Shown here: in pieces, positions 6,335 through 60,620 of the stretch
Layout: each line of letters begins with the position of its first letter
Position numbering within the stretch: the stretch's first letter is position 1
From: Patescibacteria group bacterium
GTDB lineage: Bacteria > Patescibacteriota > Patescibacteriia > UBA9934
NCBI GenBank assembly: GCA_049296775.1
Contig: JBAQTB010000001.1
Span: 96,992 to 160,991, forward strand
Direction of reading: 5' to 3'
DNA length: 64,000 bases
Program-made: the position numbers and the translations under genes
The notes under the pieces: generated by a model
What the model was told of the DNA's origin: nothing
Seen by the model: only the letters and a program-made list of their open reading frames with translations
Database searches by the model: none

Positions 6335-8053
6335 TTACGGCACTACGATTTTCAGGCCACAGCCTGGGCTGAGCGGATCTTCCACCGTGGTGTAGCCCAA
6401 GTAGTCGCCTTGGTAAGTAGCTATGAGTGACCCTCTGACCTGTCCGGGCGGATACGGCGCCAGACAGGACCAGCTGTGCAGGCCATCATCCAGCACCTCA
6501 GCGCTGAAGCGGAAGCTGTCGCCCGGCACCAAGTCCGTCACCGTCACGGTGACAGAGTTGATGTTCTGGACTTCATTGAAGACACTCCCCCAGGCGCCTT
6601 CTGGCTGCCCCAAGCGAGTAGTCGCGCCGCGCAACGTGATAGCATCCACTGTTTCGTCGTCAGGTGTGAACCAGGTCAAAACCAGGTCATCACCTTCTGC
6701 AATGTCCGCGTTGATGCCCCCGCCACCCAGCACCTCTTGCGGGCCCCCGCAAGTAATGAGGTCGGTCCGGGTCAAGCACATGGTATCGGTGACGCACGTG
6801 CCACGCATTGTCGCCACGGCCATGAGCTCTTCGGCACGCATCTCAATGACCTCGCGGTCTTCCCAACCAGCCAACAGGAACGCTTCCCAGGTCTGAACGG
6901 GTTGAGCCACGCCGTCACTCATGACGTACACCGCGCTGTCCTCAACCGCCGAGATCAAGCTGCCGTCTCGGAAAGTCGCAGCACCAGCATAATCATAAGC
7001 CTGCACCAAGCCGGATTCTTCCGGTTCGTGATACAGATCGTTGTAAGTTGCAGCCGTGATGCCCCAGCTCTTCAAGACCGCCTGCCAGCCAGAGTCTGGC
7101 ACCAGCAAACGGTAGCGGTCGGGATCGGTCAGCTCCCCCACCAGCAGCCACACGGCTTGGTTGGGAAAGGCACCGAACACGGCCGTGATTTCAGTGGCGG
7201 CGCTCAAGCCAGCGTTCTGGCCGTAGCACACGCGTTCACTGTCTGAGATCAGCACCACATCGCTGAAGCTGTAGTTGCGACTGGTAAACGCTTCTTCCGT
7301 CAGGAATGGCGTGTACTGGTCGTTCTCAACCAGGTAAATCGTGGAATTACCTGGTACCTGCACCAAGCTGCCGTTCGGGTGCCACAGCGGTGTCTCCAGC
7401 AAGGAGCTGTACATTTGACCGCCGGGCAAGGCGCACCACATGTCGCTCGTCATGAGCTGCACGTGATCGCCTGGGCTGTTTTCCATGTCCAGGATCAGGC
7501 CGTCGACAGACTGCCCGTTCACGCCATCGAGCGAAGCATCACCCTGATGCCGGCCGTAGTGCACGTGATCTCCGGACGAGTAGCCTGTAGTACCCTCAAA
7601 GCCGAGCAATTGGCCAGCCGCAACCTCGCTCAAGTTGTCGATGAAGACGGTCTCCATATGACCCAAGATGAGGTAAGTACCGTCACCTTGATCAATGTTG
7701 ATATGCACGCCAAAGCCGCCCGTGCGGTCGTCGTCGTGGACGTAGGCCAAGCCGCCCACTGGTGCGAAGAGTGGCACGTCCACAGTGTTGGAAGTGTCGA
7801 GGTCGACATCGAACATAGTGCTCCGTGCGTTGTGCGAGGTGGTTCCACGTGCGCCCTGGGTACACACACCCGGATACCCGTAAGCGAAGGGCAAGTCCGC
7901 CATAATGGCATCCGTCCCGCCGCCGGTGAATTCTGGGATCTCAGCAACCGGCATTGGCCCCGAATGATACAGACACTCCGGTCCGCAGCAACCGCTGGCC
8001 AAATGCGCACACCACAACATCATCGCTACCAACAAACCGTTCAAATATCGCAT
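6335..8053 (-). CDS. Secreted M23/LytM-family metallopeptidase, a peptidoglycan hydrolase, in a GC-rich gene
   Basis: N-terminal signal peptide MRYLNGLLVAMMLWCAHLASG. M23 motifs HINIDQGDG...GHMETV and GFEGTTGYSSGDHVHYGRHQGD (G.TG.S.G.H.H). About 58-60% GC versus about 45% for the flanking T4SS genes. Confidence 0.7.
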   Translation of the reverse strand: MRYLNGLLVAMMLWCAHLASGCCGPECLYHSGPMPVAEIPEFTGGGTDAIMADLPFAYGYPGVCTQGARGTTSHNARSTMFDVDLDTSNTVDVPLFAPVGGLAYVHDDDRTGGFGVHINIDQGDGTYLILGHMETVFIDNLSEVAAGQLLGFEGTTGYSSGDHVHYGRHQGDASLDGVNGQSVDGLILDMENSPGDHVQLMTSDMWCALPGGQMYSSLLETPLWHPNGSLVQVPGNSTIYLVENDQYTPFLTEEAFTSRNYSFSDVVLISDSERVCYGQNAGLSAATEITAVFGAFPNQAVWLLVGELTDPDRYRLLVPDSGWQAVLKSWGITAATYNDLYHEPEESGLVQAYDYAGAATFRDGSLISAVEDSAVYVMSDGVAQPVQTWEAFLLAGWEDREVIEMRAEELMAVATMRGTCVTDTMCLTRTDLITCGGPQEVLGGGGINADIAEGDDLVLTWFTPDDETVDAITLRGATTRLGQPEGAWGSVFNEVQNINSVTVTVTDLVPGDSFRFSAEVLDDGLHSWSCLAPYPPGQVRGSLIATYQGDYLGYTTVEDPLSPGCGLKIVVP

Positions 8054-8665
8054 GTCTACTCCTCTAGGAAGGTTATCGGAATGATCAATCTTCCCTGCTC
8101 AAGGGGGAATGCAACTGGCTCAAGCAGAGAGGATCGAGGCGAGCTCAGAATGTTCGACTCCCCAGCCAAACATTCTGAGCGTCTGTAACGGTGAGTGAAG
8201 TGACCAAGAAATCGTTTGCTTGCAGGCGCTCTCTAACAAGAGAGTTCAGCTATGCAGGCTCACGAACTTCGCAGTTATCTACCCACTCACATGACTCGGT
8301 GGCCACCGATGAACACTGAAGTTCTGCTCCTATAACACCTTGATTTGCCCAAGGCCTCAAGCCGAAAAGCGGCCTAAACACCAAAAAGCCGTCGGCATAA
8401 ACCGACATAATTGAATAAACTCAGTTTTATGGCCATTATTCGCTAAGTTCTAGCTGTCGGCGTTTTCCGGCTGACCTACGTGGACAAAAGCCCGTTGGTT
8501 TGACTTTTAGCCAAAAATATGCTACTCTCCAAATATATCGGAGAGGAGACCGATTGTAGTTTCACAATCTTTTTAAGCACGCCTTTGCGTGCTTTAGTTC
8601 TCACTGTCAGATTTTCTGGCAGTCCACGTCACAAACATACGGCCAAGTGGCCGTGAGGAGTCATC

Positions 8666-9519: not shown

Positions 9520-12500
9520 TTAATTCACGATCACCGTACCCTGATAATACACCCACGGATCTACCGGACCACCCGGAGCAATCGCGCGATTGTAAGAACA
9601 CTCGGACTGAAGGATCGTGGCATTACTCAATGTGTTATAAGCATCCCCCTCATAACAACCCGGGTCGCCGTCAGCGGTACATGTACCTGTACACCAACCC
9701 CAGTTATCGCGGATGTGGACGGCGGGCTGGAAGACACAAGATTTAGTGTCGCCTTCACCTGGGATCCAACATGGACTGTTAGTCGCTACGCCATTCTTAT
9801 ATTGGCAAGCCTTGGCGGTATCACTGGTGATCTGAGATGAACAGGTATAAGTGTGAGAATAAGAGAAGTAGTTTGGATCACAGCTCTCCGGTGTCTCACC
9901 CCACTCATCACCTTGATCACAGATAGACGTATCCGTAGCACCATCTATACCCCGGTGATTCCTATAGAAGTTATCTGTTGAGTCAGAACCCTGGAAGCCA
10001 TCTAACCTACTCTCTATACCGTCACCCCAATCAATAACAACGCGTCTAATCGGCAATTGATTCTTATCCGCGGCGGCGTAGAACTTCAGGTAAGCGCGCA
10101 AGAAATCTTCACCTTCAACGTTGCCTGAATTTTGATCGTTCAAAGTCAAAGCGTTCTCACTGCCCTCCTCACACAAAGTGCCGACACAGGAACCATTTAA
10201 GATCGACATAACCTTAGGCGGATTCCCCTGCTCCGCCCGGACGTCGAAGACACTTTCATCCACTTTAAAGTTTTCAATGTCACCCTCGTCGTACTTGCGC
10301 TCGTTATCTGGCCACGTCTTATCTTCAGAATTCCAACTGAATTGATTATCCACAATTCCAGGCAAGCTAACGCCGGCAAAAAGCTGGTTGATCGACCCGA
10401 AGACATCATCAAAGAAACCACTAACACCCCAGTTGCTAATTTCCGTACGGTTAGCATGAAGCTGTGCAAAACCGATAAAACTTCTAGCATCAGCCGTAGC
10501 TGGGTTGATACGTGTCAATAATTCATTCGAAGGAATGACTGAGACGCCCGTATCACCGCTACCACCACCGGCTGAATAGTTTGTCCCGCCTAGATATGCA
10601 CAATTATTATATGGCGCTGGACCTCCAGGATGAACCATGCTTTTCGCCGCAGTCTCTTCACAGGCCGCGACAACTAATGGCCACTCATCCTCCAAGGTAC
10701 TTGGATCGATACTGACAAAGCCGTATGGGCCAGGATTTGTACCGTAAACAAAGTCCAAAGTTGGGTCAGCAACAATACCTGGGAATGACGTTTCCTTGTC
10801 AGGACCCAACAACCTGTCCGTCCAAGCGTAATCGACCTTAGTCCCACCGTCAGACACGCGCGTCACTTCCTTACATGCCGCATAGAACTCCGCCTTCATG
10901 TACAAGTCTCGATATACATCTGTTGGTACTTCGATCCCATTAACCACAACGAAACCTCCGCCCTCAGGTGTATCAAACACGGCGGCATCAACAGCTTCAT
11001 TTACTTCAACACCCTTCAAAGTACAGTCGCTAAGTGCCTCTACCAACAAGTCGAAAGATATATAGTGGAACAGAGCATTAGCATCATCGATACCTTTAGC
11101 CATAGCCATGCCCATTATCTCAGCATCATTGGCTAAATTATATTTGAAAGTGAAGTTTAAGATCTGTCCAGATAACGCCTCTAAATCTCCCTCAATATCC
11201 TGGATTAAACCGGCGACATATGCGCTATCCGAATTGCAACTTTCGCCCTCCAAAGAGACCGCATCCTTAGGGATACACACAAATGGACAATCATTTCCAG
11301 CTCCAGTGGTGGCGCAAGCCTGAGACATCGTACCGTCATTTCCCTGTTCTTTATATGATGGCATGCCTAACAAAGCCCAATAACCTTCGGGACACTGAGC
11401 ATTGGCAGCGCACTCTTGTGCGATATCAAACGAATAGGCCTCATCATCCGCAATACCCTCCTGGCCCGACTCAGCACAAGCAATGTCGCCAGAGGAATAT
11501 GGCGCACCGAGTTTAGAATAACCGCTCATCTTGAGGTTCGCCATTGGAGAGACGTATGAACAAGCGAACGTGTCCTCAAAGTAACCGGCTTCGGTGAATT
11601 TGGCGTAGAGGTCGGTGCTGCCGGCGAGTTGGTCAACCGGCAACCAGGTCAAACAGGCGCCTTCGGAACGGTCGCCGTTAATATTGACGCCAGTGTCTCT
11701 TTCCAAACAGTAACCCTCTAAACCAAGGAGCGTATCTTCACGCGTAATCATGGAACACGTACCGTCCTCGCTATCCGTTGCGGTGTTGCATTCGGCATCA
11801 TCCTGACAGGCTGCATTAACTTTCCCGGTGGTACATAAGCCGCTACCACTGGTCACTGCAGACTCCACATCCCAATACCTAATCTGAGCACCCTCACCGT
11901 AGGTCAATTTGCGGTAAGAACATTGACAATCCTCACCTGGGGCACACAAATTAACTTCTTGGAAACCAGCTCTAATCTGATACGGCACGTCATCCTTAGG
12001 GAATTCAACTTGAGTAAAGCCTTCACCTGCCGGCAACGGAGCGCCGTTATTGTCTGGATCAGCCCAACGCTCAACTAGCTCGAAGCTAAACGGAGCGTCG
12101 CTCTCTGGTTGAGCCCGGCAAACTTTACCCTCTGATAGGGCTACATTAAAGGTCTTGCCGTCCGGGGTCAAAATACACTGGTCACGCACACAGCTACCAA
12201 CTTTGAGAGCCGTGTTAGCCACGAATACCTGACCGGCAGCACAAGCGCCGTTAGGGTTACTTCCGAAGGCGTTGAAAGTTTCAATGGTAACTTTACCGCC
12301 CTGTGAAACACACTGGGAACCAGAACAGATCTGATCGGCGGCACAATTGGAATCCGTAGCACACAAGGTACCGGTCTGAACCTGACAGGAACCAGCAATA
12401 CAGCTACCACCTGACAGACCACAATCCGTGGTGGAAGCACAGGCAGAACCGGTGTTCTGACAGTAACCAACCGAACAACTAGAACCGTAACTACCAGAAC

Positions 12501-15500
12501 ATTCGCCAGCAACTAATGCCAAGCGGTAATCCTCAGCATCATCAACTACGCAGTAATTAGCGAACGTGCCACCAATACCACAGTCGTACGCGCTGGTCTC
12601 TTGCTCACACGGGTAGCCGTGCTTGTTTTGATAATGATCCTCCGTAATCAGGCCGCTGGCATACGCGTCACTCAAATCACATGATCCTGGTGGCGGAGAC
12701 ACGTTCGCTTGTTCCAAAGTTTGCACGGGGAAAATGTCAGGAATAGCGTAACCAGAATATTCCTGTCCGTACCAAGACACGTCTCTAGAGGTATACACGC
12801 CTGCATCTAAAATAACTTCAGACGCATCCTCTTTCCAGGCTGAACAGAAAGTACTGCCACCAGAAGAGGAGTATTTAGTACACAACTGAATATCGGTACA
12901 CACAGTCTTCCAGCTATTCGTCCGCTGATCCCAGCTAGCCATGTCCTCAGCACAACTCAACCACTCAGAACACTGGCGATCACGGTTAACTTTGAGAACG
13001 GTATTGGTGTCATTCTCTAATCTTGGTACGGCCACGGCCTGAGCTCCACCCGGCGCCGCAGGTGAAGTCGCCCTAGCCCTGGTATTACAGTCAAAGGCGG
13101 CAATTTCGTCACCGGACTGGCTGCGCATGGTGCCACAATCTGACACGTCGTAGCAGGAGGTACCGGTTAAGTAGAGATCGTCATAATTCTTAGGAACTCC
13201 CAAACCACCAAGTGACAGTTTAATGTTTCTTGGCACTCCGTCTGCAATATCCCGCACCATGCCTTTGTCATAGAGACAACGCTGTGCACACAGATCAACC
13301 TGAGTGCCATCCGCCAAAGTCAGCCTAGAATTACCGCCTTCACAATCAATCGGCTCAACCAAGGCAAACGGCTGCGTGCCTAGCAAAACATCAGCATGCG
13401 TACTTAAGACCTCTGAAGCACTGGCATTATATTTTTGAGCTGGCTCAGAAGTGTCGTTAAACAGGACGCAACCTTCCTTGAGAGAAGCTCTGCCGTCACA
13501 ACGCTGACTGTCTGGCAAGACATTCTCGTCCAAATTATCGTTATTCAAGTAGAAATACTGCTTACCAGAAGACAGCTGATAACGTTCATCCGTTTCCAAG
13601 TCCAATGGATCCTGGAATTCAGAACAAGAGTTGTAATTACTTGGACACTCGCCTACCCAACCGCCGTACTGGTCATCACCATTGCGCCATACACCGGACA
13701 ACGTGCCACCAATCACATAAGAAGGATCCGTGGTGTTACAGCTACCAGCGCCACATTGCGCATCTGAAGAACAAGACGTCACGCCGTCAGTACACGTGCC
13801 GTAACAGAACTCATCTGTACCCGCCCTGAACCAACCGTCATATTCTGCGCCGTTGATCAAAACATCAGTCCGGTAGCCACAAGTTTGGTTGACTGGGTCT
13901 TTAAAGAAGAAAGTGCCATCATCTTGAGTATCCCACGCCGCACAGAACAGTTCACCGGCATTACACAAAGTCTGAGCGTATTGATCGGGGTCGTTCATTA
14001 AGAATACTGATTCAGCGGCAAGAGTGCTATTTCTGTCCTGGCTCCATTCTGGTTTACCTACCTCTGTACAACCAGCGTATGCAGAACTACACGTCACACT
14101 CTCATCTACCACCAAGAACACATCACTATCCGCTGGAACAACTACGGTCTCTGGTCCGTAAGTAATGTGAGATGGCAAGATATTAGGATTTTGGTACCAG
14201 TCAATATCAAAGTTACACGCCGTTTGGCCAACGCCAATGGTACACAGATACTGACTAGTGAGGTCAAAACCACCAGCTCCGTCACGCTTGTAGTAGCAAG
14301 AAGCTGGAGAGGTCACTGCTGCCCCACCCGGGTTACTACACGTAGCTTGATACACCTCAGCAAAAGGTGATGAGCTCTCATGGGTCATGAAGAAATCTTC
14401 ACAACCAACTTTATCGCTAGAACACAAACTGCTGAATGATTTTAAGTAAGCAATCTGATTGTCTTGAGTGTTGTATTCCTGACAACCCAGGTAATACTGC
14501 GGAGAAGCTGCGCCTGTAGGAGCCTGATCACAAGCCGCTGGAGTCACCCAAGAATCTTTAATGAGGGTAATGTCGTCCTCACCTTCACGTAACGTAATGT
14601 TGTCAATGTAAGCTAAACTAGTTGGGTCAAAAACTAACGTAGTCGCTGGGCCAAAGTTTGCGTAACCCTCTCTAGTCATGTTGAGTGGCCCCAAACTGAA
14701 CTGCTGCCAACCGCTGGTTAGTTTGACCGTGCCAAAGGCGACATCAGCCACTGACGATCCTGGCACAGCGGCAAGGTCAAAAGCGGCCGTCAGATCCCCC
14801 GTACCTTTAGCCCAGAAAGACAAAGTGTAAGTCTTGCCCTGGAAAAGTTGATTTTCCAAGGTGCCACAGTAAGTATTGCCCTCAATGACTACACAGTTGC
14901 CGCCAAAACTCTGAGCTGTACCGCTACAACCACCCGGCGTGGCACAAACAGAGCCATTATCAAAGATAAAGGTTGAGAATTGGTTCGTAGCTGCAATCGA
15001 ATGACCACCCGTGGCCAGAGATTCATTACTCAAAGTCACGTCTGCAGCACTAGCGGCGTCCCAATTGTTCAAATCGCCGCCCTCCAACGTGTCTTCAAAG
15101 GCAATACGGCTGTTTCTACTTCTACCACCTGTGTATGACCTACAACCGTTAGCTGAATCTGGACACTCCACACTCTCCTCGCTGTAACCGTTGTAGCGAC
15201 AGGTTCCAGTTAGGTCATCAAAATACCCACCGGAGTTTTGACAGTTAGCAGCTTGCGCAAAAGCATCCGTACCCACCAGTTCGGTTTTGCGGTAAGCGCT
15301 ACATGCAGCGTTCACAGACACGGTCTTGGACCACAATCTGTAATGAATTCCACCGCTCGTGTCATAGAACTCTCGGCAGTCTGGGTTAGAGAAAATATCC
15401 TCATGTTCATTACAAGCAGCCGTATCCCAATCCTTCTTAAGATCGCCGTCACTATCTAGCTCATCAGAACATACGATCCCGTCAGCGGTAGCGCTCCAGA

Positions 15501-18500
15501 CTGAACACGGTGCCAAACTTGGGGTGCTATCGATTCCGCCCGCCATATAAGTGTACGGGGTGCTGGCCATGTTTGATTCCAACAAACTCCAAGTTTTTAG
15601 CTGGTAACCCTCCAAATCAGAGCCTTCCCACGTGTAGAAAGTGGCCTGATTATCCCCGTTGGTATTGATAGCGGCCTGAGTTGGGGTGACGCAGGCTCGG
15701 AGATAAGTGTAGTACTCCAAAGCCTCCGTGCTCAAGTTAGTAAACTCATCACAGCCCACGTATTCCTGTGAACAAGACTCACCCGTGGTCGGAATGAAGT
15801 AAACCGGGAAAGTGCCAGCTGGCTCATACAAAGTTGCCTCTTGCTTGAAAGTATCGTAACCGACACAAATAGCTGGACAGGCGTCTAACTCTGACGCCAC
15901 ACCGGTGACAGTTGGATCACCGTTAGTTGGCGTGTAAGCCGTACAGCCAACTTCATTCTCACTACACACCTGCGCATAATTAGCACACTCAGCTGGATCA
16001 GCAGCGTTACCCTGACAACCCAAGTAACTTGGTGGCACCTTCACACTGACGCTGCTCAACTGACTAGTTGAGTAGCCTTCATGATAATCAGTCGCACCCT
16101 CACCCTGCTCTAACTGAATATCGTCAAAGAAAACGTTGCCGGACAAGGTCAAAGTTGCCATGACCGTGGCGGCTGGATCACGCAAAATTGGTGACGTGAA
16201 GGTACAAGCAAAGCTCTCATACTCGGTACCAGTTGGCGTACCGCTCGTCTCAAAAACATCCGCTAAGCCGTTACCATTAGTGACATTGCCACTGTTGGCG
16301 ATTACACAAGTAGTGTTGGCATCAGCAAAGAAGCTCGTGCCGTTCAGGTTAATATCATTCCCAGTTTCAAGGGCTAGAAACTCCAAAGCCAAGGTACCGG
16401 TGGAATTACTACCGACTCCTTTAATCTCTGTCTTTTGGCGGGCGTAAAACGAAACCGTGTAAAAACGTCCCTGAGCCAGGGCGATACCTGGCTGAATCAG
16501 TTCGCCGTTCAAACTTGGATCAATAGCATCAGAACCTGATCGGGCTGAATTGTCAGAATTAACTGCCGCACCAACTCCACCGCGCTGCCAAGCGTCAGGC
16601 ACGGTGTCATTGTTCTGATCATCTTCAAAAGACGAGTTCTGCACTACGTTTAAACTAATCCCCGGGTTACGGGCATACAACTCAGCACAGCCACCATTTT
16701 CAGCCGAACAATCCTCTACCGCGCTAGTAAAGTAAATGCGGGAAGTGTAAGCATCCGGCGCAGCATCTGCTACAGCCACATCTGCCACGGGCTGCCAATC
16801 ATAAGTGCCGTCACCCTCTGGATCCGCCTTAACGGTGTCGTACCACAAACAACCAGCGTTATCCGCAGTACAGCCCGCAAAGTCGACAGTATTTTGCAAG
16901 TAAGACGCGGTCTTATCTTCTCCCTCAAACGTCAGACAAGAAGCGTATTCAGCTGGACAAGACTCCCCTCTAAAGCGCCAGGTATTTTCTTCTTGCACAC
17001 AGTAACCGTAACCACCGGTACAGGTACCGTCATCATTTTCTGCAATACAGCTAGGCATGTCTACACACTCGTTTTGACGCTCAGCAATATCTGAGGCCAC
17101 TAATAGCTGCCCGCTCACCAAGGCTTTACACTGAGTTTCTGGGTATTTAATTACCCAATTTGGGTCAATGAGCTTACACCACGGATGCGTAGCATCAATT
17201 TCACCGGCCGTATTACAGTCATCAAAACCGTCCACTACCTCCTGCAAAGTCACGGCATCTGTCACGGAGTTGTATTGCGATTCAGCCGCCAACTCCCAAC
17301 CAATCGAGATAATTCTAGCCTTGCGCAATTTCACCAAGTTAGTCTGACAAAAACCGTAGGTATAGCAGAAAGGGTCCTGGTTTCTAGCCAAATCTGCAGC
17401 TGGAATAAGCGGCCAACTGCCGCTAATCAAATTCTGCTCCAAGGCTTCTGCCACGGTTAACGGTGCCCCAGCCTCCGCCCGACCGACAGCAGAGATAAAG
17501 GAATTATTCGCGACACAGTTATATAAACCTCTTGGCACTCCAGAAGGACAAGAGCCGAATTCACTCAAGATGCTGTAATTAGAAATTTCCAACGGCGCCA
17601 CAGTGATAAGTGACCTGAACTGATCTCTAGCCGTGTCTGAATTACTCCTAGCAATGGAATCCAAGCTAGCAAAAGGGTCGCTAATCTCGCTATCAATCTT
17701 AAAGAGGCCCTCACCAAGTTTTTTAGTTAAACTAGACAACAAAGTATTCGTAAAGACAGAGCCTGCGTGGATACCCACTTGGAGCAAAGCGCGCTCTGAC
17801 TGCATCAACGCCAAGGTAGTTTCTGTCCTAACCGTACCTGGTCCTTCTAGGTCCACAAGGAGTTTATGCTCTATAAGTGAGGCTGGGGTTTCGATCTGAC
17901 CGGTAATAAAGTCTGTGACAGACTGCGTACCGCCATCTTTAATATGCACCTGGGCCCTCAAAAATGACTCCTGCAGAGCATTATTCAAAATGCTAGACTG
18001 CAACTCAATACCCACCGCAAATTCACTTTGATCTGGCTCAAAAGCGTTAGCTAGCTGAGCTAGAACCAACTTATTTTTGTTATCTGCAGTCCCTTCATCC
18101 TGAATATCTGCCAAAAAACCATTCCAATTACTACTAATAGCTTTAAAATCACACTTAGGCACCGGACGCTCAAAGGCGGCCTTCACACCCAAACTAAGCG
18201 CGATAGTGATATCTGCCCTGGGTTGACAGAGGTTGAAACCGGAAAAAATCGCACCCAAAGCACCACCACCAGCCTCCAAATTATCTTGCAATAAACCCAG
18301 AGACTCACCCGCCACCGCCGCCCCATATTCCTTAAAGTAACGCTCAATTGGCGTGCCATCATACAGCGGCGTCTCCGCTGGACCACCCGAAGCCACCATC
18401 ACCGCCGTATCATACGCCAATCTATCCGCTGCAAACGTCATTAAATTGATCAAATACACCATGATCGTACCAGCCAAACTATCCTTGATCTTTTCACCAG

Positions 18501-18669
18501 CGCTATTAATGCCCGCCCAGGCTTCAAAAGCTGGATAAGTGGTAATGGCAGTTGCAGGAGCCTGAGCACTAGCGAAGCGGGGGGATGAAGCACTAAAGAA
18601 AACTATACCAACCAGCAAGAGTGGCAATAGTTTGCGAGCTGAGTTCTTCAACCTGAACATGTAGCGCAT
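9520..18669 (-). CDS. Giant secreted cysteine-rich surface protein (3049 aa) with two CBM4_9-like carbohydrate-binding jelly-roll modules and a C-terminal PKD-like module
   Basis: Signal peptide MRYMFRLKNSARKLLPLLLVGIVFFSASSPRFASAQA. Hundreds of Cys in CxxxxC / GxC repeats, for example GSCIAGSCQVQTGTLCATDSNCAADQICSGSQC. CBM4_9-like signatures GRFYTVSFYARQK and GKTYTLSFWAKGTG sit in roughly 200-aa modules. The PKD-like signature VVIDWGDG...YSHTYTC is near the C-terminus. No LPxTG sorting signal. Confidence 0.75.
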   Translation of the reverse strand: MRYMFRLKNSARKLLPLLLVGIVFFSASSPRFASAQAPATAITTYPAFEAWAGINSAGEKIKDSLAGTIMVYLINLMTFAADRLAYDTAVMVASGGPAETPLYDGTPIERYFKEYGAAVAGESLGLLQDNLEAGGGALGAIFSGFNLCQPRADITIALSLGVKAAFERPVPKCDFKAISSNWNGFLADIQDEGTADNKNKLVLAQLANAFEPDQSEFAVGIELQSSILNNALQESFLRAQVHIKDGGTQSVTDFITGQIETPASLIEHKLLVDLEGPGTVRTETTLALMQSERALLQVGIHAGSVFTNTLLSSLTKKLGEGLFKIDSEISDPFASLDSIARSNSDTARDQFRSLITVAPLEISNYSILSEFGSCPSGVPRGLYNCVANNSFISAVGRAEAGAPLTVAEALEQNLISGSWPLIPAADLARNQDPFCYTYGFCQTNLVKLRKARIISIGWELAAESQYNSVTDAVTLQEVVDGFDDCNTAGEIDATHPWCKLIDPNWVIKYPETQCKALVSGQLLVASDIAERQNECVDMPSCIAENDDGTCTGGYGYCVQEENTWRFRGESCPAEYASCLTFEGEDKTASYLQNTVDFAGCTADNAGCLWYDTVKADPEGDGTYDWQPVADVAVADAAPDAYTSRIYFTSAVEDCSAENGGCAELYARNPGISLNVVQNSSFEDDQNNDTVPDAWQRGGVGAAVNSDNSARSGSDAIDPSLNGELIQPGIALAQGRFYTVSFYARQKTEIKGVGSNSTGTLALEFLALETGNDINLNGTSFFADANTTCVIANSGNVTNGNGLADVFETSGTPTGTEYESFACTFTSPILRDPAATVMATLTLSGNVFFDDIQLEQGEGATDYHEGYSTSQLSSVSVKVPPSYLGCQGNAADPAECANYAQVCSENEVGCTAYTPTNGDPTVTGVASELDACPAICVGYDTFKQEATLYEPAGTFPVYFIPTTGESCSQEYVGCDEFTNLSTEALEYYTYLRACVTPTQAAINTNGDNQATFYTWEGSDLEGYQLKTWSLLESNMASTPYTYMAGGIDSTPSLAPCSVWSATADGIVCSDELDSDGDLKKDWDTAACNEHEDIFSNPDCREFYDTSGGIHYRLWSKTVSVNAACSAYRKTELVGTDAFAQAANCQNSGGYFDDLTGTCRYNGYSEESVECPDSANGCRSYTGGRSRNSRIAFEDTLEGGDLNNWDAASAADVTLSNESLATGGHSIAATNQFSTFIFDNGSVCATPGGCSGTAQSFGGNCVVIEGNTYCGTLENQLFQGKTYTLSFWAKGTGDLTAAFDLAAVPGSSVADVAFGTVKLTSGWQQFSLGPLNMTREGYANFGPATTLVFDPTSLAYIDNITLREGEDDITLIKDSWVTPAACDQAPTGAASPQYYLGCQEYNTQDNQIAYLKSFSSLCSSDKVGCEDFFMTHESSSPFAEVYQATCSNPGGAAVTSPASCYYKRDGAGGFDLTSQYLCTIGVGQTACNFDIDWYQNPNILPSHITYGPETVVVPADSDVFLVVDESVTCSSAYAGCTEVGKPEWSQDRNSTLAAESVFLMNDPDQYAQTLCNAGELFCAAWDTQDDGTFFFKDPVNQTCGYRTDVLINGAEYDGWFRAGTDEFCYGTCTDGVTSCSSDAQCGAGSCNTTDPSYVIGGTLSGVWRNGDDQYGGWVGECPSNYNSCSEFQDPLDLETDERYQLSSGKQYFYLNNDNLDENVLPDSQRCDGRASLKEGCVLFNDTSEPAQKYNASASEVLSTHADVLLGTQPFALVEPIDCEGGNSRLTLADGTQVDLCAQRCLYDKGMVRDIADGVPRNIKLSLGGLGVPKNYDDLYLTGTSCYDVSDCGTMRSQSGDEIAAFDCNTRARATSPAAPGGAQAVAVPRLENDTNTVLKVNRDRQCSEWLSCAEDMASWDQRTNSWKTVCTDIQLCTKYSSSGGSTFCSAWKEDASEVILDAGVYTSRDVSWYGQEYSGYAIPDIFPVQTLEQANVSPPPGSCDLSDAYASGLITEDHYQNKHGYPCEQETSAYDCGIGGTFANYCVVDDAEDYRLALVAGECSGSYGSSCSVGYCQNTGSACASTTDCGLSGGSCIAGSCQVQTGTLCATDSNCAADQICSGSQCVSQGGKVTIETFNAFGSNPNGACAAGQVFVANTALKVGSCVRDQCILTPDGKTFNVALSEGKVCRAQPESDAPFSFELVERWADPDNNGAPLPAGEGFTQVEFPKDDVPYQIRAGFQEVNLCAPGEDCQCSYRKLTYGEGAQIRYWDVESAVTSGSGLCTTGKVNAACQDDAECNTATDSEDGTCSMITREDTLLGLEGYCLERDTGVNINGDRSEGACLTWLPVDQLAGSTDLYAKFTEAGYFEDTFACSYVSPMANLKMSGYSKLGAPYSSGDIACAESGQEGIADDEAYSFDIAQECAANAQCPEGYWALLGMPSYKEQGNDGTMSQACATTGAGNDCPFVCIPKDAVSLEGESCNSDSAYVAGLIQDIEGDLEALSGQILNFTFKYNLANDAEIMGMAMAKGIDDANALFHYISFDLLVEALSDCTLKGVEVNEAVDAAVFDTPEGGGFVVVNGIEVPTDVYRDLYMKAEFYAACKEVTRVSDGGTKVDYAWTDRLLGPDKETSFPGIVADPTLDFVYGTNPGPYGFVSIDPSTLEDEWPLVVAACEETAAKSMVHPGGPAPYNNCAYLGGTNYSAGGGSGDTGVSVIPSNELLTRINPATADARSFIGFAQLHANRTEISNWGVSGFFDDVFGSINQLFAGVSLPGIVDNQFSWNSEDKTWPDNERKYDEGDIENFKVDESVFDVRAEQGNPPKVMSILNGSCVGTLCEEGSENALTLNDQNSGNVEGEDFLRAYLKFYAAADKNQLPIRRVVIDWGDGIESRLDGFQGSDSTDNFYRNHRGIDGATDTSICDQGDEWGETPESCDPNYFSYSHTYTCSSQITSDTAKACQYKNGVATNSPCWIPGEGDTKSCVFQPAVHIRDNWGWCTGTCTADGDPGCYEGDAYNTLSNATILQSECSYNRAIAPGGPVDPWVYYQGTVIVN

Positions 18670-24195: not shown

Positions 24196-25830
<1,635 letters not shown>

Positions 25831-25841
25831 TTAGAACTTAA

Positions 25842-26147
25842 TTAAACAACTACCGCCATGACCTCATCAGCGTTCACGATCAAGTATTTCACTGATTCAC
25901 CGGCCGGGTTCTTTAATTCGATTTCATCTGGAGCGTATTTCTTGAACACAACCTCATCACCGGCCTGAACATCAATCGGCTGTCTGGTGCCATTATCTAG
26001 AACTTTGCCCGGACCAACAGCGACCACTGTACCGCGCTCTGGGCGCTCTTTGTCAGCCGTATCTGGGATGATAATGCCAAGGGCGGTGGTGGTCTCTTTA
26101 GGGGCGACAGCGAGAATGATGTGATTGCCTAATGGTTTCAATTGCAT
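25842..26147 (-). CDS. groS: Co-chaperonin GroES. The ATG at 26147 (MQLKPLGNHII) is preferred over the longer ORF starting at 26189.
   Basis: LKPLGNHIILAV...GIIIPDTADKERPERGTVVAVGPG is the GroES mobile-loop region. Sits directly upstream of groL. Confidence 0.85.
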   Translation of the reverse strand: MQLKPLGNHIILAVAPKETTTALGIIIPDTADKERPERGTVVAVGPGKVLDNGTRQPIDVQAGDEVVFKKYAPDEIELKNPAGESVKYLIVNADEVMAVVV

Positions 26148-26256
26148 ACGTAAGATTTTATCAATTTCTCTCTCAAAATTAGCACTCAAACAGGTAGAGT
26201 GTCAACCGTGAAGAGTAAAAGCCAAAGATAAGAGCCGGTCCAGCTGGACCGGCTCA

Positions 26257-26592
26257 CTAGACCTCCTCTTTCGCCTTAGCTACATACCGCTTCCGGCCCA
26301 GCAAGAAAGCTACAGAGTGGCCATAATTAACCCGAAGCTGCCACTGCACACGAGACAACTCGTCGCCATACTGGGTACGAATAGCCAGTAATGGGTCTTC
26401 GAATGACCCAATCTTGAGCGGCACCACTCTCAAGATACCTCCATTCAACGAGAACACGTACAACGGAGCGCCACGGAGACCTCCGGGACGCCTCAGCCAA
26501 AAACGCGGCGGACTCGGAGCGATCACCAGAACGTCTCCAGGCAAGAGGTCAGTGGCCACATAACCGTCAGCCTCTTTCAGAAAAACCTTCAT
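26257..26592 (-). CDS. Hypothetical protein of 111 aa in a GC-rich mini-cluster
   Basis: ORF with GC-rich codon usage and no recognisable motif. Confidence 0.35.
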   Translation of the reverse strand: MKVFLKEADGYVATDLLPGDVLVIAPSPPRFWLRRPGGLRGAPLYVFSLNGGILRVVPLKIGSFEDPLLAIRTQYGDELSRVQWQLRVNYGHSVAFLLGRKRYVAKAKEEV

Positions 26593-26643
26593 TACAACCT
26601 CCAGCCACGACTTAGCGATCGTGCCAAGAAATGTTTGGAAGAG

Positions 26644-26994
26644 TTACAGCCGCTTCCGCACGATTGAGCCCGTAGTGTGAGCGGTCAAATGAGCCTCCCA
26701 AACCCCGTACTCAAATGCGGTCACCAGCATCTTAGCGCAAGATTCATCCGTCATCCACGCACCAGTGTCTTCCCAATGATTGGTGTAAACAGTGCGAAGG
26801 CCACTCTCCAAAACGTAGCTATCAACACGTACGCCATCGCTGATAAACGAAGTTTTGCGCACCTCGACTCCGTGCTCGTCATCCGGCAAGCCGTCCTCAC
26901 GAACCAACCTGCCCTCAGCGTTAACCTCATACTTTATGAGAGCGCTGCGTGTCGTGACACGGTAGAACATTTTCTTCTGATTCTGATCTGGCAT
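26644..26994 (-). CDS. Hypothetical small protein, paralog A of a tandem pair
   Basis: 116 aa. FYRVTTRSALIKYEVNAEGRLVREDGLPDDEHGVEVRK...WMTDESCAKM aligns residue-by-residue with the ORF at 27139-27468. The RBS GGAGG lies 5 nt upstream. Confidence 0.55.
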   Translation of the reverse strand: MPDQNQKKMFYRVTTRSALIKYEVNAEGRLVREDGLPDDEHGVEVRKTSFISDGVRVDSYVLESGLRTVYTNHWEDTGAWMTDESCAKMLVTAFEYGVWEAHLTAHTTGSIVRKRL

Positions 26995-27010
26995 CACGCC
27001 TCCAAAGTTA

Positions 27011-27030
27011 TTCCAACCTGAATGTTGGAA
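27011..27030. promoter_or_regulatory. Perfect 7-bp inverted repeat TTCCAAC-N6-GTTGGAA upstream of paralog A, a putative operator or RNA hairpin
   Basis: A conserved about 70-nt block recurs upstream of paralog B: inverted repeat, then AACCTAACATA, then ACGTCTAG. Confidence 0.5.
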
Positions 27031-27138
27031 GGGTCAACCTAACATAAAGGCAGGTTTACGTCTAGACTAAACGCTCTTCCCACGGCAAAACTTAGCCAAA
27101 AAAATACGGCCCCACCCCGCTCGGGTGAGGCCTGAAGA

Positions 27139-27468
27139 CTAATGCTCGGTAGCGTAAATGCTCTGGCGACCGCGGTAAAACGCGATACCCGCAATCTTGG
27201 CGCAGGCCTCGCTGGTCATCCAGAGCCCGGTCAGGCTCCAGACGTTCATCACGACAGGCCGTCCCGAGCTAAGAACCAACGTGTAATGATGAACGTAACC
27301 ATCGTTAACGAGCGTCGCGTGTTGAGACTGGCGCGCCTCCACACCGTGAGCGTCGTCCTCGAGGCCGCCTTGACGGATCAAGCGACCGGACGCATTGACC
27401 TCGTAAGTTACGAGATCGCCTGCTGGCGTCAACCGGTAGAACAAATGCTTCACCTCCTCAACCTTCAT
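27139..27468 (-). CDS. Hypothetical small protein, paralog B of a tandem pair. The ATG at 27468 is preferred; the longer ORF to 27585 would run through the conserved upstream module.
   Basis: MKVEEVKHLFYRLTPAGDLVTYEVNASGRLIRQGGLEDDAHGVEARQ...WMTSEACAKI is homologous to paralog A. The RBS GGGGGTGG is upstream of the ATG. Confidence 0.55.
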   Translation of the reverse strand: MKVEEVKHLFYRLTPAGDLVTYEVNASGRLIRQGGLEDDAHGVEARQSQHATLVNDGYVHHYTLVLSSGRPVVMNVWSLTGLWMTSEACAKIAGIAFYRGRQSIYATEH

Positions 27469-27486
27469 GCACCACCCCCAAATCTG

Positions 27487-27506
27487 TTCCAACTGAAGTG
27501 TTGGAA
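27487..27506. promoter_or_regulatory. Second copy of the TTCCAAC-N6-GTTGGAA inverted repeat, upstream of paralog B
   Basis: Identical half-sites and an identical downstream AACCTAACATA ... ACGTCTAG block to the copy at 27011-27075. Confidence 0.5.
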
Positions 27507-27538
27507 CGTATAAACCTAACATATAATCGTATTCACGT

Positions 27539-28834
27539 CTAGTCTGAGCTAGGCTCGCCGGCACGCAATAAGAATGAGGCAACAATAGTCGCTAACACTA
27601 AACCGGACCAGTTTGACCACAAATAATGGTCGAAAAAGATAATTACAAACAATACTTTACCTAATCCATGAGCCAAAGCCGCGTCCGGATGAGGAAAACG
27701 AGAAAAATTAAGTCGATCCAAAGCGATCATCCAGCCGATCAAGGCCAACAAGCCAAGTACACCGACCTCAGATAACACCAAGAGCGGCACGTTATGAATG
27801 GGTTGATACTCCCAAACGCTCTTGTTTGGGTGCAGATCGGCCTGAGTAAATACATAGTTACGCGGGCCATGACCAAAAGCTAAAGTCTGCCAACTGAGCG
27901 TGGCGGGAAAATCTTGATATTGAATGACACGCTCACTGAGGGAACGAGTTTCCAATTCTCCCCCACCTCGCAGGCTAGCTGCCAAACCCGGAGCCAAGAG
28001 CGTTACGCTAAGTGCCGCACCAATGACAGTGACAGCGATTGGCATGACTAATTTACGTACCACCGTCGTCGGCCGAAAATATCTGACCAATAGCCACAAA
28101 CCGCCGCCCAGCAAACACCCGAGCAAAGCCGAACGGGATGCTGTTAACGCCAAGCCGAAAGCCAAAATAAAACACAGTGGCCACTGAAAATGCTTGAGCC
28201 TAGTCGCTAGTCCAGACATCGCCAACAAAAATCCAACTGCTAAATAACCGCCAAAGATATTCGGGTGTGAGAATGAACCGTAAGCTCGCAACATACGTTG
28301 ACCGTCCGGTGCTTGCCAAACAGCATCGCCTAGCGCTTCAGCACTCCGCGGTGCCAAGCCCAGCCATTTTGACGCACCAGACTCTCCAACTATGACTTGA
28401 TAAAGTCCAAGCGCAATCGGCAAGAGTAAACCCAGAACAAAACCGCTCATGACCACCGGTAAATTAACGCGCTTATCCAGTAAGGCGATAAAAATTAGTC
28501 CGGCGAAGCTAAAATCAATCAGCCAAGCCAAAGCTGGGATGGACACCGCCACCATCACGCTTGAAATGACAGCGATCACACCCACCACCCCAGCCCAACC
28601 AAGCGCCGTACGATATTGGCTGTTGATCCTAGGCCAACCGTGCCATAAGTACACCCCCAACAGCGCACACAACACCCCAGCCTGAGTGGCGTACAGGCTA
28701 ATAATGCCAAACGGGGTAAACGACCCAGACAACCATGACCAACCAAAAATGTATCTGGTCTGCCATGGCAACAAAAACATGAAGACCGTCAAAATACCTG
28801 TAGGCGTCCAGAGCTGATTCAACCAAGTCTTCAT
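27539..28834 (-). CDS. O-antigen ligase (Wzy_C/RfaL) family polytopic membrane protein
   Basis: About 10 TM helices and an external loop RAYGSFSHPNIFGGYLAVG...SRSALLG, typical of O-antigen ligase/polymerase-like proteins. Confidence 0.6.
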   Translation of the reverse strand: MKTWLNQLWTPTGILTVFMFLLPWQTRYIFGWSWLSGSFTPFGIISLYATQAGVLCALLGVYLWHGWPRINSQYRTALGWAGVVGVIAVISSVMVAVSIPALAWLIDFSFAGLIFIALLDKRVNLPVVMSGFVLGLLLPIALGLYQVIVGESGASKWLGLAPRSAEALGDAVWQAPDGQRMLRAYGSFSHPNIFGGYLAVGFLLAMSGLATRLKHFQWPLCFILAFGLALTASRSALLGCLLGGGLWLLVRYFRPTTVVRKLVMPIAVTVIGAALSVTLLAPGLAASLRGGGELETRSLSERVIQYQDFPATLSWQTLAFGHGPRNYVFTQADLHPNKSVWEYQPIHNVPLLVLSEVGVLGLLALIGWMIALDRLNFSRFPHPDAALAHGLGKVLFVIIFFDHYLWSNWSGLVLATIVASFLLRAGEPSSD

Positions 28835-32822: not shown

Positions 32823-32907
32823 AATATTTGCTATTTAACAGATGAACTCGGCCATCAGCCGAGTCCAGATACCCACAGATTAACATGTGCACAAAAAGTG
32901 TGCAAGT

Positions 32908-44282: not shown

Positions 44283-44409
44283 AGGGCAACATTAGAGACG
44301 GCCGGATAGCCGTCTATACCGCCCTAGGATATAAAAAAAGGTCGAAAGTAGCAAGTCGGTTCAGTACTTCGCTCAAAGGGGGAATGTTGTTTTTATCTGT
44401 AAATAGGCT

Positions 44410-45538: not shown

Positions 45539-46720
45539 TTGTCTGGGGCAATCTTACTCCGCATGTCTCTTGCGCCTCACGAACAATTCCTCCATGCCGT
45601 TAAACGTGCTGAGCGTCCACTCTTGGTGCTTAGGGAGCTAGCGCATACTGATGACTTTGCCGCGGCCTTTGCGTTATCTGCTGTGCTGAAGAAACTAGAT
45701 AAGCCGGCCGATATTGTCTGTGCCGGTGGCCGTTCCCCTGACAGTCTCAAATTTTTAAAAACTGCTCAAACGGTTAAAGGTGACCTAGCCAATCTCCGCT
45801 CACTCACGCTGCACGTTGATGTTAGTAAAGCTAAAGTCGAAGAGCTGTCATACAACGTGGTTGGCGATGAATTAAAAATTCACGTTACTCCCAAGAACGG
45901 TTTCTGGACCGCCGATGATGTCAAAATCGCCACAAGTGCCTACCGTTATGATTTGCTCATTGTAGTTGGAGCCGCAGACTTAAAGAGCCTAGGTTCAATT
46001 TTTACACACTACGCCGATTTTCTATACAACACCCCGATCATCAACCTAGATCACACCGCGGCTAACGAACATTTTGGCCAAACCAATTTAGTTGATACCG
46101 CCGCGACCTCCGTGTGTGAAGTGGCTCATGACCTGGTCAAACATGTCGACGACAAGTTGTTCGATGCTGAAATTGCCACAGCCTTACTCACGGGTATGGT
46201 TGCAAAAACTAAGAGCTTCCGGACCTCAAACGTAGGACCAAAAACTTTGGCCGCCGCCAGTTCACTTATGAGTTTTGGAGCGCGTCGAGATGAAGTCGTG
46301 GATAAACTCTTCCGTACCCGTTCCGTAGAAACCTTGAGACTGTGGGGCCGTGCCCTGGCCAGATTGAAGGCTGATCAAAAAACCGGCTTAGTCTGGACGC
46401 TATTAACTCGACAAGACTTTGCCAACGCTGGCGCGAATGAAGAAGCTCTCGGCGATATTGTGAGTGAGCTAGTTACCACCGCGCCTGAAGCCAGGGTGGT
46501 CGCCATTTTCTACGAGCATGTCGGCGGTTACGTCGCTGTCCACTTATTTGCCGAAAGACCACATGACGCCTTACAACTCGGAGCACCTTTCAAAGCCTCG
46601 GGCACCCGTGAACGCGCCCGCCTGGTGCCAGCCGAACGTGAAATCGTGGAAGCCGAAAAGGCCGTGATCAGCCACTTACAACGAGTTTTAACGCCTGCCG
46701 CTGAACCAGAAACTATCTAG
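45539..46720 (+). CDS. DHH/DHHA1-family phosphoesterase-like protein (NrnA-like), possibly degenerate
   Basis: INLDHTAANEHFG resembles the DHH motif with DHH replaced by DHT. Overall size and layout resemble NrnA. Confidence 0.35.
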   Translation: MSGAILLRMSLAPHEQFLHAVKRAERPLLVLRELAHTDDFAAAFALSAVLKKLDKPADIVCAGGRSPDSLKFLKTAQTVKGDLANLRSLTLHVDVSKAKVEELSYNVVGDELKIHVTPKNGFWTADDVKIATSAYRYDLLIVVGAADLKSLGSIFTHYADFLYNTPIINLDHTAANEHFGQTNLVDTAATSVCEVAHDLVKHVDDKLFDAEIATALLTGMVAKTKSFRTSNVGPKTLAAASSLMSFGARRDEVVDKLFRTRSVETLRLWGRALARLKADQKTGLVWTLLTRQDFANAGANEEALGDIVSELVTTAPEARVVAIFYEHVGGYVAVHLFAERPHDALQLGAPFKASGTRERARLVPAEREIVEAEKAVISHLQRVLTPAAEPETI

Positions 46721-46800
46721 TGGTAGGTTGACATTTTGTTAGGTTTACACTACCTTGACCAGTCGCAAACTTATTTGCGATACCACCACGAGGCAACAAC

Positions 46801-47118
46801 ATGACGTTGCAGAACCCGCCAGTACCATATCTCGCCCACTTCCAAGTGATGAGCGGACCGACCATCGCGACACTGTTTGACGTCATCGTCCATGATACGC
46901 AGACCGATCTGCACTTCGTGCTCGGCACTTGGGCCGAGGAGCCTGCGACCCACATCGCTCAGCTACGACTGCGTCGGCTGAGCGTGCCTGACGTCGAGGG
47001 CACGCGTGAAATCGAGCTGTACGCAGAGAGCGAAGGCAACGACTATCGCTACCGCGGCCTGTACGACTCAGCCGGCAAAGGGCGTCTGTCCCGAGAGCGG
47101 CTACCCAAACGCCAGTAA
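46801..47118 (+). CDS. Hypothetical protein of 105 aa in a stand-alone GC-rich cassette
   Basis: An upstream TTGACA at 46728-46733, the RBS GAGG, the ORF, then a terminator at 47142-47172. GC-rich codon usage. Confidence 0.35.
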   Translation: MTLQNPPVPYLAHFQVMSGPTIATLFDVIVHDTQTDLHFVLGTWAEEPATHIAQLRLRRLSVPDVEGTREIELYAESEGNDYRYRGLYDSAGKGRLSRERLPKRQ

Positions 47119-60100: not shown

Positions 60101-60620
60101 GCAGGAATACCAGATGATCGCTCCCCCTTCGCTCCTAACGGAGTTACGGCGGGAGAGGAAAGTCCGAACACCCCTCTAGCGGCAACGCTGGAGTGAGCAA
60201 AGCGTCGCTAACGGCGACCGGGAGTAAATACGAATGTGAGGGACTGGGTGACTCACCATGAGTTGTCCCCCAGGTTCGTGTGAAGCCCAGGGAAAGTCCA
60301 TCAATGACTAAAGAAATTGGTGGGTCATGGCTAGTCCGAAAGAACTAGTCAGACGCAACAGAGACATTCTCGCTACCTAACCCGCAAGGCACGGTAGTCA
60401 AAGGTGAAACGTGATGGGACTTAAAACGCAAGTTTTAGGGAGCCATCTCACGCATGCGGTGACGCATGGGTGCGGCAAACCCGCTTTGGTGCAAGAACAT
60501 ATTTGGTAGTTCGCCTGATCCGTTTAGCAATAAACGGACAAGAGAGATGATCGTCATGTAGAGCTTGAGGCATGGTGTCCAAGCGCTACAACAGAATTCG
60601 GCTTATAAGTATTACCTGCC
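60101..60620 (+). ncRNA. rnpB: RNase P RNA (bacterial)
   Basis: The universally conserved P4 strand GGGAGAGGAAAGTCCGAAC near the 5' end and the 3' box ACAGAATTCGGCTTA. P1 pairing GCAGGAATAC (60101-60110) with GTATTACCTGC (60609-60619). A terminator follows. Confidence 0.85.

Follow-up and report, generated by a model that had tools for sequence, protein, structure and literature searches.

In this work we analysed a 64-kb stretch of DNA from the metagenome-assembled genome of a Patescibacteria group bacterium (the window) and, within it, a cluster of three small open reading frames (ORFs), A, B and C, that lies between a Wzy_C O-antigen-ligase-like gene and groES. Relatives were found via the ligase gene, and eighteen related loci, numbered L001-L018, were compared with it; being identical to L003, L015-L018 contribute nothing to covariation. 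We regard it as highly probable that the cluster consists of a duplicated unit, in which promoter, inverted repeat (dyad), Shine-Dalgarno (SD) site and gene follow one another, and of an A-C cassette, inserted at the ligase-groES junction. The complete interpretation, in which the dyad also acts as RNA, is held with somewhat less than even confidence. Every gene between 22.7 and 31.6 kb of the window is on the minus strand, and the database locus tags of the cassette genes are WAZ14_00575 to WAZ14_00585. The features, in the direction of transcription, are listed below, with lengths in amino acids (aa), nucleotides (nt) or base pairs (bp) and with isoelectric points (pI).

28834-27539, minus strand: Wzy_C O-antigen-ligase-like gene (Pfam, E 1e-14)
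27535-27542, minus strand: -35-like block CTAGACGT (core TAGACG) of the B unit, which includes the TAG stop of the ligase gene (27539-27541); 8/8 identical to the A unit
27513-27523, minus strand: extended -10 block TATGTTAGGTT (TGt + TAGGTT) of the B unit, 17 nt downstream of TAGACG; 11/11 identical to the A unit
27487-27506, minus strand: dyad TTCCAAC-ACTTCA-GTTGGAA of the B unit, 6 nt after the -10 block, with an 8-bp extended form at 27486-27507 (sequence and fold)
27472-27479, minus strand: SD site GGGGGTGG of the B unit, aligning with GGAGG of the A unit (sequence)
27139-27468, minus strand: ORF-B, 109 aa, acidic to neutral (pI 6.6), paralog of A (sequence comparison)
27098-27132, minus strand: intrinsic terminator of B, a 10-bp stem (27132-27108), 8 of its pairs GC, and then a T7 run (terminator scan)
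27058-27065, minus strand: -35-like block CTAGACGT of the A unit, identical to that of the B unit
27036-27046, minus strand: extended -10 block TATGTTAGGTT of the A unit, 11/11 identical to that of the B unit
27011-27030, minus strand: dyad TTCCAAC-ATTCAG-GTTGGAA of the A unit, 5 nt after the -10 block (sequence and fold)
26999-27003, minus strand: SD site GGAGG of the A unit (sequence)
26644-26994, minus strand: ORF-A, 116 aa, acidic (pI 5.8) (sequence comparison)
26593-26643, minus strand: A-C spacer, 51 nt, with the anti-SD CUUCCA at 26636-26641 and the SD of C, UGGAGG, at 26598-26603 (RNA fold)
26257-26592, minus strand: ORF-C, 111 aa, basic (pI 9.9), conserved partner gene of A (synteny and sequence comparison)
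26232-26255, minus strand: terminator hairpin downstream of C (terminator scan)
3' of the cassette, minus strand: groES and groEL, preceded by a CIRCE-like inverted repeat, 26179-26205 (window sequence)

The two units have the same order, CTAGACGT, N11, TATGTTAGGTT, TTCCAAC-N6-GTTGGAA and SD site, and what they share is confined to these blocks. The units agree at 8/8 positions of the -35 block, 11/11 of the -10 block, 14/14 of the dyad arms and 7/8 of the SD site (TTTGGnGG). For the first three taken together this is 33/33, while the spacers (4/11, 2/6 and 1/4) are at background level. The original prediction had given the coordinates of the three ORFs and of both copies of the perfect repeat correctly, and the blocks AACCTAACATA (27036-27046 and 27513-27523) and ACGTCTAG (27058-27065 and 27535-27542) and the SD sites are present; its "identical" module of about 70 nt is better described as four blocks that are identical or nearly so, separated by spacers that are not. 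It had also recognized A and B as paralogs, and the two proteins indeed align over their full length with 45% identity (E 8e-29). Their divergence is considerable: differences at codon positions 1, 2 and 3 amount to 0.42, 0.33 and 0.57 (order 3>1>2), the codons differ at 27 of the 50 identical residues, synonymous divergence (dS) is 1.73 with a ratio of nonsynonymous to synonymous divergence (dN/dS) of 0.30 (Nei-Gojobori), and at the 4-fold sites of identical residues the third base agrees in 4 of 19 cases, which amounts to saturation. Because dS is about 1.7 and the 4-fold sites are saturated, the duplication is, on sequence divergence, an old one. The upstream blocks have been kept while the spacers are at random identity and neutral sites are saturated, and by this comparison the blocks are functional signals under selection rather than the leftover of a recent duplication. 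The -35 block illustrates the point, since its B copy overlaps the ligase stop codon while its A copy has no coding role, so that its conservation can be considered regulatory. The original prediction had regarded itself as endangered if the upstream similarity belonged to a longer segmental duplication and the palindrome was not conserved elsewhere. The outcome is mixed. Both hold, as the similarity lies within a tandem segmental duplication and the palindrome is not conserved elsewhere; yet the duplication is ancient, only the signal blocks were kept, and syntenic homologs exist, though few.

These observations leave almost no credence to the idea that the ORFs are spurious or decaying and that their upstream similarity is a relic of segmental duplication. 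The rarity of the family, with only four protein clusters among 5.8 billion, would fit that idea, but intact orthologs occupy the same slot in other genomes, 33/33 bases of the signal blocks are identical where neutral sites are saturated, and selection acts on the proteins: in addition to the A-B value, dN/dS is 0.28 between the A-like genes of L001 and L014 and 0.07 for a close pair of C-like genes. Given dN/dS of 0.07-0.30, the codon-position order 3>1>2 and the syntenic orthologs, A, B and C are by these measures real coding genes, and B is, judging from the loci compared, a later tandem copy specific to the present genome. The database start of B (P0003, 127 aa, WAZ14_00585) is an ATG within the -10 block, from which the frame crosses the dyad (27469-27522, minus strand). 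From the corresponding ATG of the A unit, three codons can be read before a stop, and for this reason the 127-aa start is probably over-extended and the 109-aa start is favoured.

TAGACG, the 17-nt spacer and TGt-TAGGTT read as the -35 and extended -10 boxes of a sigma-70-type promoter. This reading is supported by the ortholog promoters of the related loci, which share the layout. In L003 the ortholog has TTAGACA and, at the same 13-nt distance, TATGTTAATTT (a TAGAC-N13-TATGTTA layout), and TCGACA-N17-TGC-TAG(T/C)CT precedes the orthologs of L001 and L014 and the C-like gene of L003; TGTTAATTT, TGCTAGTCT and TGCTAGCCT are found as -10 variants in these promoters. The groES promoter of the window, TTGACA-N18-TAATTT with a TG, is likewise of the extended -10 type. 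From the position of the boxes we infer a transcription start site (TSS) at about the start of the dyad. The expression signals of the cassette are, as far as they can be read from the DNA, conventional. An exact copy of TGTTAGGTT is also present 38 nt before the argS start codon and before a small ORF at 46801, so that TGTTAGGTT was rejected as a motif peculiar to A and B; it resembles a -10 variant used in this genome.

The dyad itself would start at about +1 of the predicted transcript and ends 7-8 nt before the SD site. As RNA it forms a hairpin of 7-8 bp, with a stability of -7.5 kcal/mol in the B leader and -7.4 kcal/mol in the A leader, and the leader folds of A and B differ little from those of shuffled sequences (z -0.6 to -1.2). 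Within the 64 kb, which are part of a 455,697-bp contig, no further copy exists with up to 3 mismatches (about 0.25 would be expected at up to 2 mismatches), and none was found in the 18 related loci. In the ortholog promoters the -35 and -10 boxes are retained and the inverted repeats differ: L003 has CCCTAC-G-GTAGGG, and L001 and L014 have CTCCG-N3-CGGAG. The original prediction saw in this arrangement a duplicated gene plus operator; the duplication of a gene with its control region is well borne out, whereas the regulon or shared operator is not, as no further copy of the dyad was found in either search. A genuine transcription-factor site nearby, CIRCE, is conserved across related loci, unlike the dyad. 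With no dyad found at other sites and different inverted repeats in the orthologs, we slightly favour a stem-loop over the operator of a regulon. Our preferred reading, tentative and just short of evenly balanced, is that the dyad forms a stem-loop at the 5' terminus of the mRNA and works in cis, on the transcript that carries it.

This preference is consistent with the surroundings of other genes in the window. In at least four of them, a -10-like box is followed at 5-12 nt by a perfect hairpin of unrelated sequence (46763-46780, 60519-60538, 32846-32864 and 44296-44315), and the window contains 37 perfect inverted repeats of this kind, where shuffled sequence contains about 18; it may be that this genome makes general use of 5' hairpins. 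Stem-loops at the 5' terminus are known stabilizers of mRNAs, according to Emory et al. (1992) in so far as that study is cited in PMC3997798, and the stem-loops of A and B could shield the mRNA 5' end. A second role would follow from the sequence of the stem: its 5' arm, CUUCCAA, is complementary to the SD site UUGGAGG of A (7 bp including one G-U), a fold in which the SD is masked is 3.5-4.6 kcal/mol less stable than the hairpin fold, and formation of the stem-loop would keep the anti-SD-like 5' arm off the SD. This complementarity ties both arms to an invariant sequence and would give the conservation of the arms a reason at the RNA level.

Several of the hairpins elsewhere in the window deserve a description of their own. 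Those at 32846-32864, 44296-44315 and 60519-60538, and another at 8575-8594, have at least 7 bp, lie 14-35 nt before start codons and 5-12 nt past -10-like boxes, and are all different in sequence. In the region 46717-47118 (plus strand), the small ORF at 46801-47118 (105 aa) looks like an orphan, with no Pfam or PADLOC match; it is preceded by promoter-like boxes, either CTAG...TGTTAGGTT or TTGACA-N17-TACCTT, and then by the hairpin TCGCAAA-CTTA-TTTGCGA (46763-46780), and in the fold of its leader (-12.1 kcal/mol, z -4.0) the SD, CGAGG, is base-paired. Between the hairpin at 60519-60538 and the gene start at 60572, a 4-codon mini-ORF, ATGATCGTCATGTAG (60547-60561, plus strand), is a possible leader peptide.

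A number of observations weigh against the interpretation that we prefer. The A and B promoters are not called by a strict consensus promoter scan, their hexamers matching at 3-4/6 positions, and the TSS is a prediction. The arms are identical at 14/14 bases despite saturated neutral divergence, with no G-U change, which fits a sequence-specific DNA operator at least equally well, and a variable loop between conserved arms is a classic operator signature. Overlap between the short inverted repeat and the -10 box in L001 and L014 means that this repeat is not wholly within the RNA. The C-like gene of L003 lies behind a terminator-like hairpin with its own promoter, and AlphaFold2 models of the proteins (pLDDT 55-57), which suggest a beta-rich fold with a C-terminal helix for A and with which fold searches came back empty, give no direct support for a protein function.

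Some of these points bear on the possible, though doubtful, alternative that the dyad is a DNA operator at about +10, comparable to lacO1, bound by a dimeric repressor that is probably encoded in the cassette (the basic C, or A/B), so that a single negative feedback would govern both units, in the manner of toxin-antitoxin and small-regulator promoters. The perfect 7-N6-7 symmetry, the arms kept while the loop has diverged (2/6) and compensating indels that hold the 6-nt spacing are what a dimeric repressor site should look like, and the dyad directly abuts the -10 box. Lineages that keep the promoter boxes and differ in the inverted repeat would be expected if the binder were a fast-evolving cassette protein, C is basic in all lineages, and a repeat that overlaps the -10 box, as in L001 and L014, could act at the DNA level only. 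However, no further sites were found in the 64 kb and the 18 loci, and Pfam and NCBIfam searches of A, B and C revealed no domain for DNA binding. Moreover, unrelated genes of the window carry different hairpins at the same place, each of which would need its own repressor, and the anti-SD character of the 5' arm provides an RNA-level cause for the sequence conservation.

The same pairing could be taken further, into a switchable RNA leader, with the 5' arm as anti-SD, the 3' arm as decoy and the SD site as target, or into a thermometer or attenuator that switches translation or transcription of A and B. We consider this very unlikely. CUUCCAA can pair with UUGGAGG of the A leader, and the same CUUCCA masks the SD of C, but the complementarity is weaker in the B leader, the SD-masked fold is the less stable one by the margin given above, and the leaders fold no better than shuffled sequences. 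An attenuator hairpin had been one of the options of the original prediction; an RNA hairpin is still a live option, but the terminator type of attenuator is excluded, and with it a known riboregulator, as no U-tract follows the dyad stem, the terminator scan lists the hairpins after B and C and not the dyads, and Rfam gave 0 matches at E up to 1 in the region 25500-28500.

The two units are predicted to differ in what is transcribed with them. B would be monocistronic, ending in its strong intrinsic terminator, and A would be co-transcribed with C, as there is no terminator in the 51-nt gap. The A-C spacer folds at -19.8 kcal/mol vs -10.0 +/- 2.6 kcal/mol for shuffled sequences (z -3.7): CUUCCA, 3 nt past the A stop, pairs with UGGAGG of the C SD, which in the predicted fold has a paired probability of 0.97-1.0. 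A ribosome finishing A would open this stem, so that C would be translated only after A, and the spacer has the sequestered ribosome binding site that is characteristic of translational coupling by RNA unfolding, a mechanism described for rpmI-rplT at a +52 nt spacing (PMC12548453). That the SD of C is masked by a strand directly past the A stop codon implies, on the modelled fold, that A and C would be translationally coupled in vivo. In L001 just 2 nt separate the stop codon of the A-like gene from the start codon of the C-like gene. The coupling would not be universal, since the C-like gene of L003 has its own promoter.

A related question is how the cassette came to lie where it does. The gene order LPG_synthase_TM gene (up336), 298-aa gene (up298), ligase, groES, groEL is conserved in 11 loci, the best match to the ligase in the genome collection being at 58%. 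In the distant relatives L004 and L007-L010, ligase and groES are adjacent, with a gap of 70-100 nt, whereas in L001 and L003, whose groEL is 90-92% identical to that of the window, the gap holds an A-like and a C-like gene. BLASTP relates A to the A-like protein of L001 (E 1e-5), as it does B (E 1e-5), and the A-like proteins of L001 and L003 to each other (E 3e-8); C matches the C-like protein of L001 (E 8e-4), which in turn matches that of L003 (E 3e-33). A hairpin equivalent to the C terminator (GAGCCGG...CCGGCTC) also follows the C-like gene in L001 and L003. The description of C as a third, unrelated ORF consequently has to be abandoned: it is the conserved partner of A, paired with it in the relatives. 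Other lineages carry other cargo in the slot. In L002 (Ca. Uhrbacteria) it contains, at 11326-12788, two ORFs on the opposite strand that we take from their translations to be EamA-like; in L005 (6175-9044), what is presumably an ABC-F ATPase, again from its translation, with a 152-aa ORF; in L006 (11263-11776), a 99-aa ORF; and in L011 (10517-11628), an ORF that we assume from its translation to be NUDIX-like, with a 67-aa ORF.

Because distant relatives have the ligase next to groES and other lineages hold other cargo, the A-C pair can be seen as a cassette inserted in one sub-clade. In the loci compared it is a rare and fast-evolving cassette at the conserved Wzy_C-ligase/groES-groEL junction of a narrow, Uhrbacteria-like lineage of Patescibacteria, and the ligase-groES slot looks like a hotspot for gene gain. 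The suggestion of a mobile cassette is upheld as regards insertion, given the adjacent genes of L004 and L007-L010; recent mobility is not, as there were no phage, plasmid or viral matches. Composition gives a similarly mixed picture. The cluster had been called GC-rich, and its GC content is 53.3% vs a window mean of 49.4%, a modest excess that places it at the 92nd percentile of same-size windows; GC at third codon positions (GC3) is 0.60-0.71 in the cassette genes vs about 0.52 in groEL and the ligase gene, and lies above that of the flanks in all three lineages carrying the cassette.

The left edge of the slot differs between close relatives. In L001, a tRNA-Leu(taa) gene and two terminator-like hairpins (7757-7832) stand between the ligase and the A-like gene. 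In L014 (620-690), whose A-like protein is 97% identical to that of L001, the tRNA gene and the hairpins are missing, the C-terminus of the ligase is different and the A-like promoter abuts the ligase end; comparing the two sequences, this edge has been rearranged recently. A tRNA-linked integration site was rejected for the window, as the tRNA-Leu gene is in the slot of L001 and in neither the window nor L014. Six of the loci, L004, L006, L007, L008, L010 and L011, are titled 'uncultured Gammaproteobacteria bacterium' and yet have a gene order of the Patescibacteria type, and these labels look unreliable; their groEL is 62-79% identical to that of the window (for L008, 92.8% over 97 residues). 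Elsewhere in the window, a very long ORF of 3049 aa occupies 9520-18669 (minus strand).

The proteins of the cassette stand apart from described families, as the original prediction had supposed. Searches of A, B and C against Pfam, NCBIfam, PHROGs and PADLOC gave sub-threshold noise only, PDB sequence-profile searches were empty, and the orthologs of A and C had no match in Pfam, NCBIfam or PADLOC. A word-indexed search of 5.8 billion protein clusters returned A, B and C themselves and nothing else, a profile hidden Markov model of A and B run on 1.84 billion representatives returned A and B only, and a four-sequence profile of the A family matched, in the 5.8 billion, only the four known clusters. 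Scans of the tblastn type through viral contigs, JGI metagenomes, plasmids and phages gave no match to the cassette. By hhalign, the A family is unrelated to the C family and both are unrelated to the 99-aa ORF of the L006 slot, which BLASTP likewise finds unrelated to the 152-aa slot ORF of L005. The A family has the motif W-x3-G-x-W-[MT]-[TA]-[DS]-E-x2-A, and its invariant residues are F10, L30, D38, D39, G65, W74, G78, W80, E84, A87 and G97. On these searches, A/B and C are two undescribed small-protein families. The pI is 4.7-6.6 for A-type and 9.4-10.1 for C-type proteins in all three lineages, and A and C probably act together as an acidic-basic complex.

As to the role of such a complex, our best guess, a new type II toxin-antitoxin or addiction-like module with A as antidote, C as a toxin made after the antidote and B as a spare antidote, is itself unlikely to be right. 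It draws on the pair of genes of about 110 aa, acidic first and basic second, on the predicted translational coupling or the 2-nt gap of L001, on the inverted repeat at the promoter, and on the variable slot, fast evolution, narrow distribution and atypical GC3. The gene arrangement is that of type II systems, adjacent small genes in one unit with the acidic candidate antidote first, L003 being the exception: there a terminator-like hairpin and a second promoter split the genes, which is unusual where stoichiometry matters. Against it, too, no toxin, antitoxin or defence family was matched in Pfam, NCBIfam or PADLOC. No toxin/antitoxin family and no RHH, HTH, AbrB or Phd domain was found by these three in A, B, C or the orthologs, and PDB profiles were empty. 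All three lineages have the cassette at one and the same place in the chromosome, searches of phages, plasmids and viral contigs did not reveal it, and the dN/dS of 0.07 for C corresponds to ordinary purifying selection. A more specific version seems to us improbable: A and C would be two new families without recognizable relatives, forming a clade-specific addiction, defence or toxin-antitoxin-like pair, autoregulated via a fast co-evolving dyad through the binding of a cassette protein to its own promoter or leader, with an anti-SD/decoy/SD arrangement in front of all three cistrons. The immunity array that had been proposed as an alternative found no support, as there is no adjacent toxin gene (the neighbours are the Wzy_C ligase and groES) and no Imm or SUKH-type match.

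The neighbouring groESL genes provide a case of a recognizable operator. The CIRCE-like inverted repeat at 26179-26205, TTAGCACTC-N9-GAGTGTCAA with 2 mismatches, overlaps the groES promoter TTGACA-N18-TAATTT and is the only such site in the window. The same element precedes groES in L001, L002, L004, L005 and L011, which implies HrcA-type control of groESL in this clade. A heat-shock regulon link of the cassette is unsupported: the dyad is not a CIRCE element, and terminators and separate promoters isolate the cassette from groESL.

If our reading of the A and B units is correct, they provide a natural phylogenetic footprint within a single genome, in which neutral sites have turned over and the -35 box, extended -10 box, dyad and SD site are left. 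The design of promoters and leaders in uncultured Patescibacteria, in which, to our knowledge, no promoters have been mapped, would in this way become visible for the first time at the sequence level. The cassette further brings to light a very small acidic/basic protein pair, not described before, whose slot beside groESL is variable. The value of the locus should not be overstated, as Patescibacteria genomes very commonly contain orphan small genes and its control elements look conventional; in practice, it lies mainly in guarding against an over-reading of the cluster as a regulon or an immunity array.

Comparison with known systems places the cassette near several of them. Type II toxin-antitoxin operons with autoregulated palindromic operators resemble it in the small acidic-then-basic genes, the predicted coupling, the promoter inverted repeat, the variable locus and the rapid divergence; unlike them, A and C have no family homology or DNA-binding domain, the position is fixed, and the first gene is duplicated with a terminator of its own. 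The CIRCE/HrcA heat-shock operator (TTAGCACTC-N9-GAGTGCTAA) is comparable as an inverted repeat that is found close by in a promoter, but it has a 9-N9-9 structure and is conserved across related loci, whereas the A/B dyad is 7-N6-7, of unrelated sequence and not so conserved. With a lacO1-type operator the A and B units share the dyad length of 20 bp, the predicted centre near +10, the conservation of the arms and the lack of constraint on the spacer, and they differ from it in that the dyad has no known repressor, no second site in the 64 kb and no conservation in orthologs. RNA-unfolding coupling in E. coli rpmI-rplT (+52 nt) and in MS2 coat-lysis (PMC12548453) involves proteins unrelated to A and C, which are neither ribosomal nor phage proteins, and the A-C case differs in being a predicted fold in one genome, with a 2-nt gap in L001 and a separate C promoter in L003; it is alike in that the SD of C is locked with a strand right after the A stop, at +51 nt. 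Finally, compared with the 5'-terminal stabilizing stem-loops of ompA and papA, as far as these are described where PMC3997798 cites Emory, Bouvet and Belasco (1992), the TSS of the A and B units is predicted and their arms are conserved in sequence between old paralogs, which structure alone would not need; what would make the two alike is a hairpin of 7-8 bp that begins at about the predicted first transcribed base, 5-6 nt past the -10 box, upstream of and apart from the SD site.

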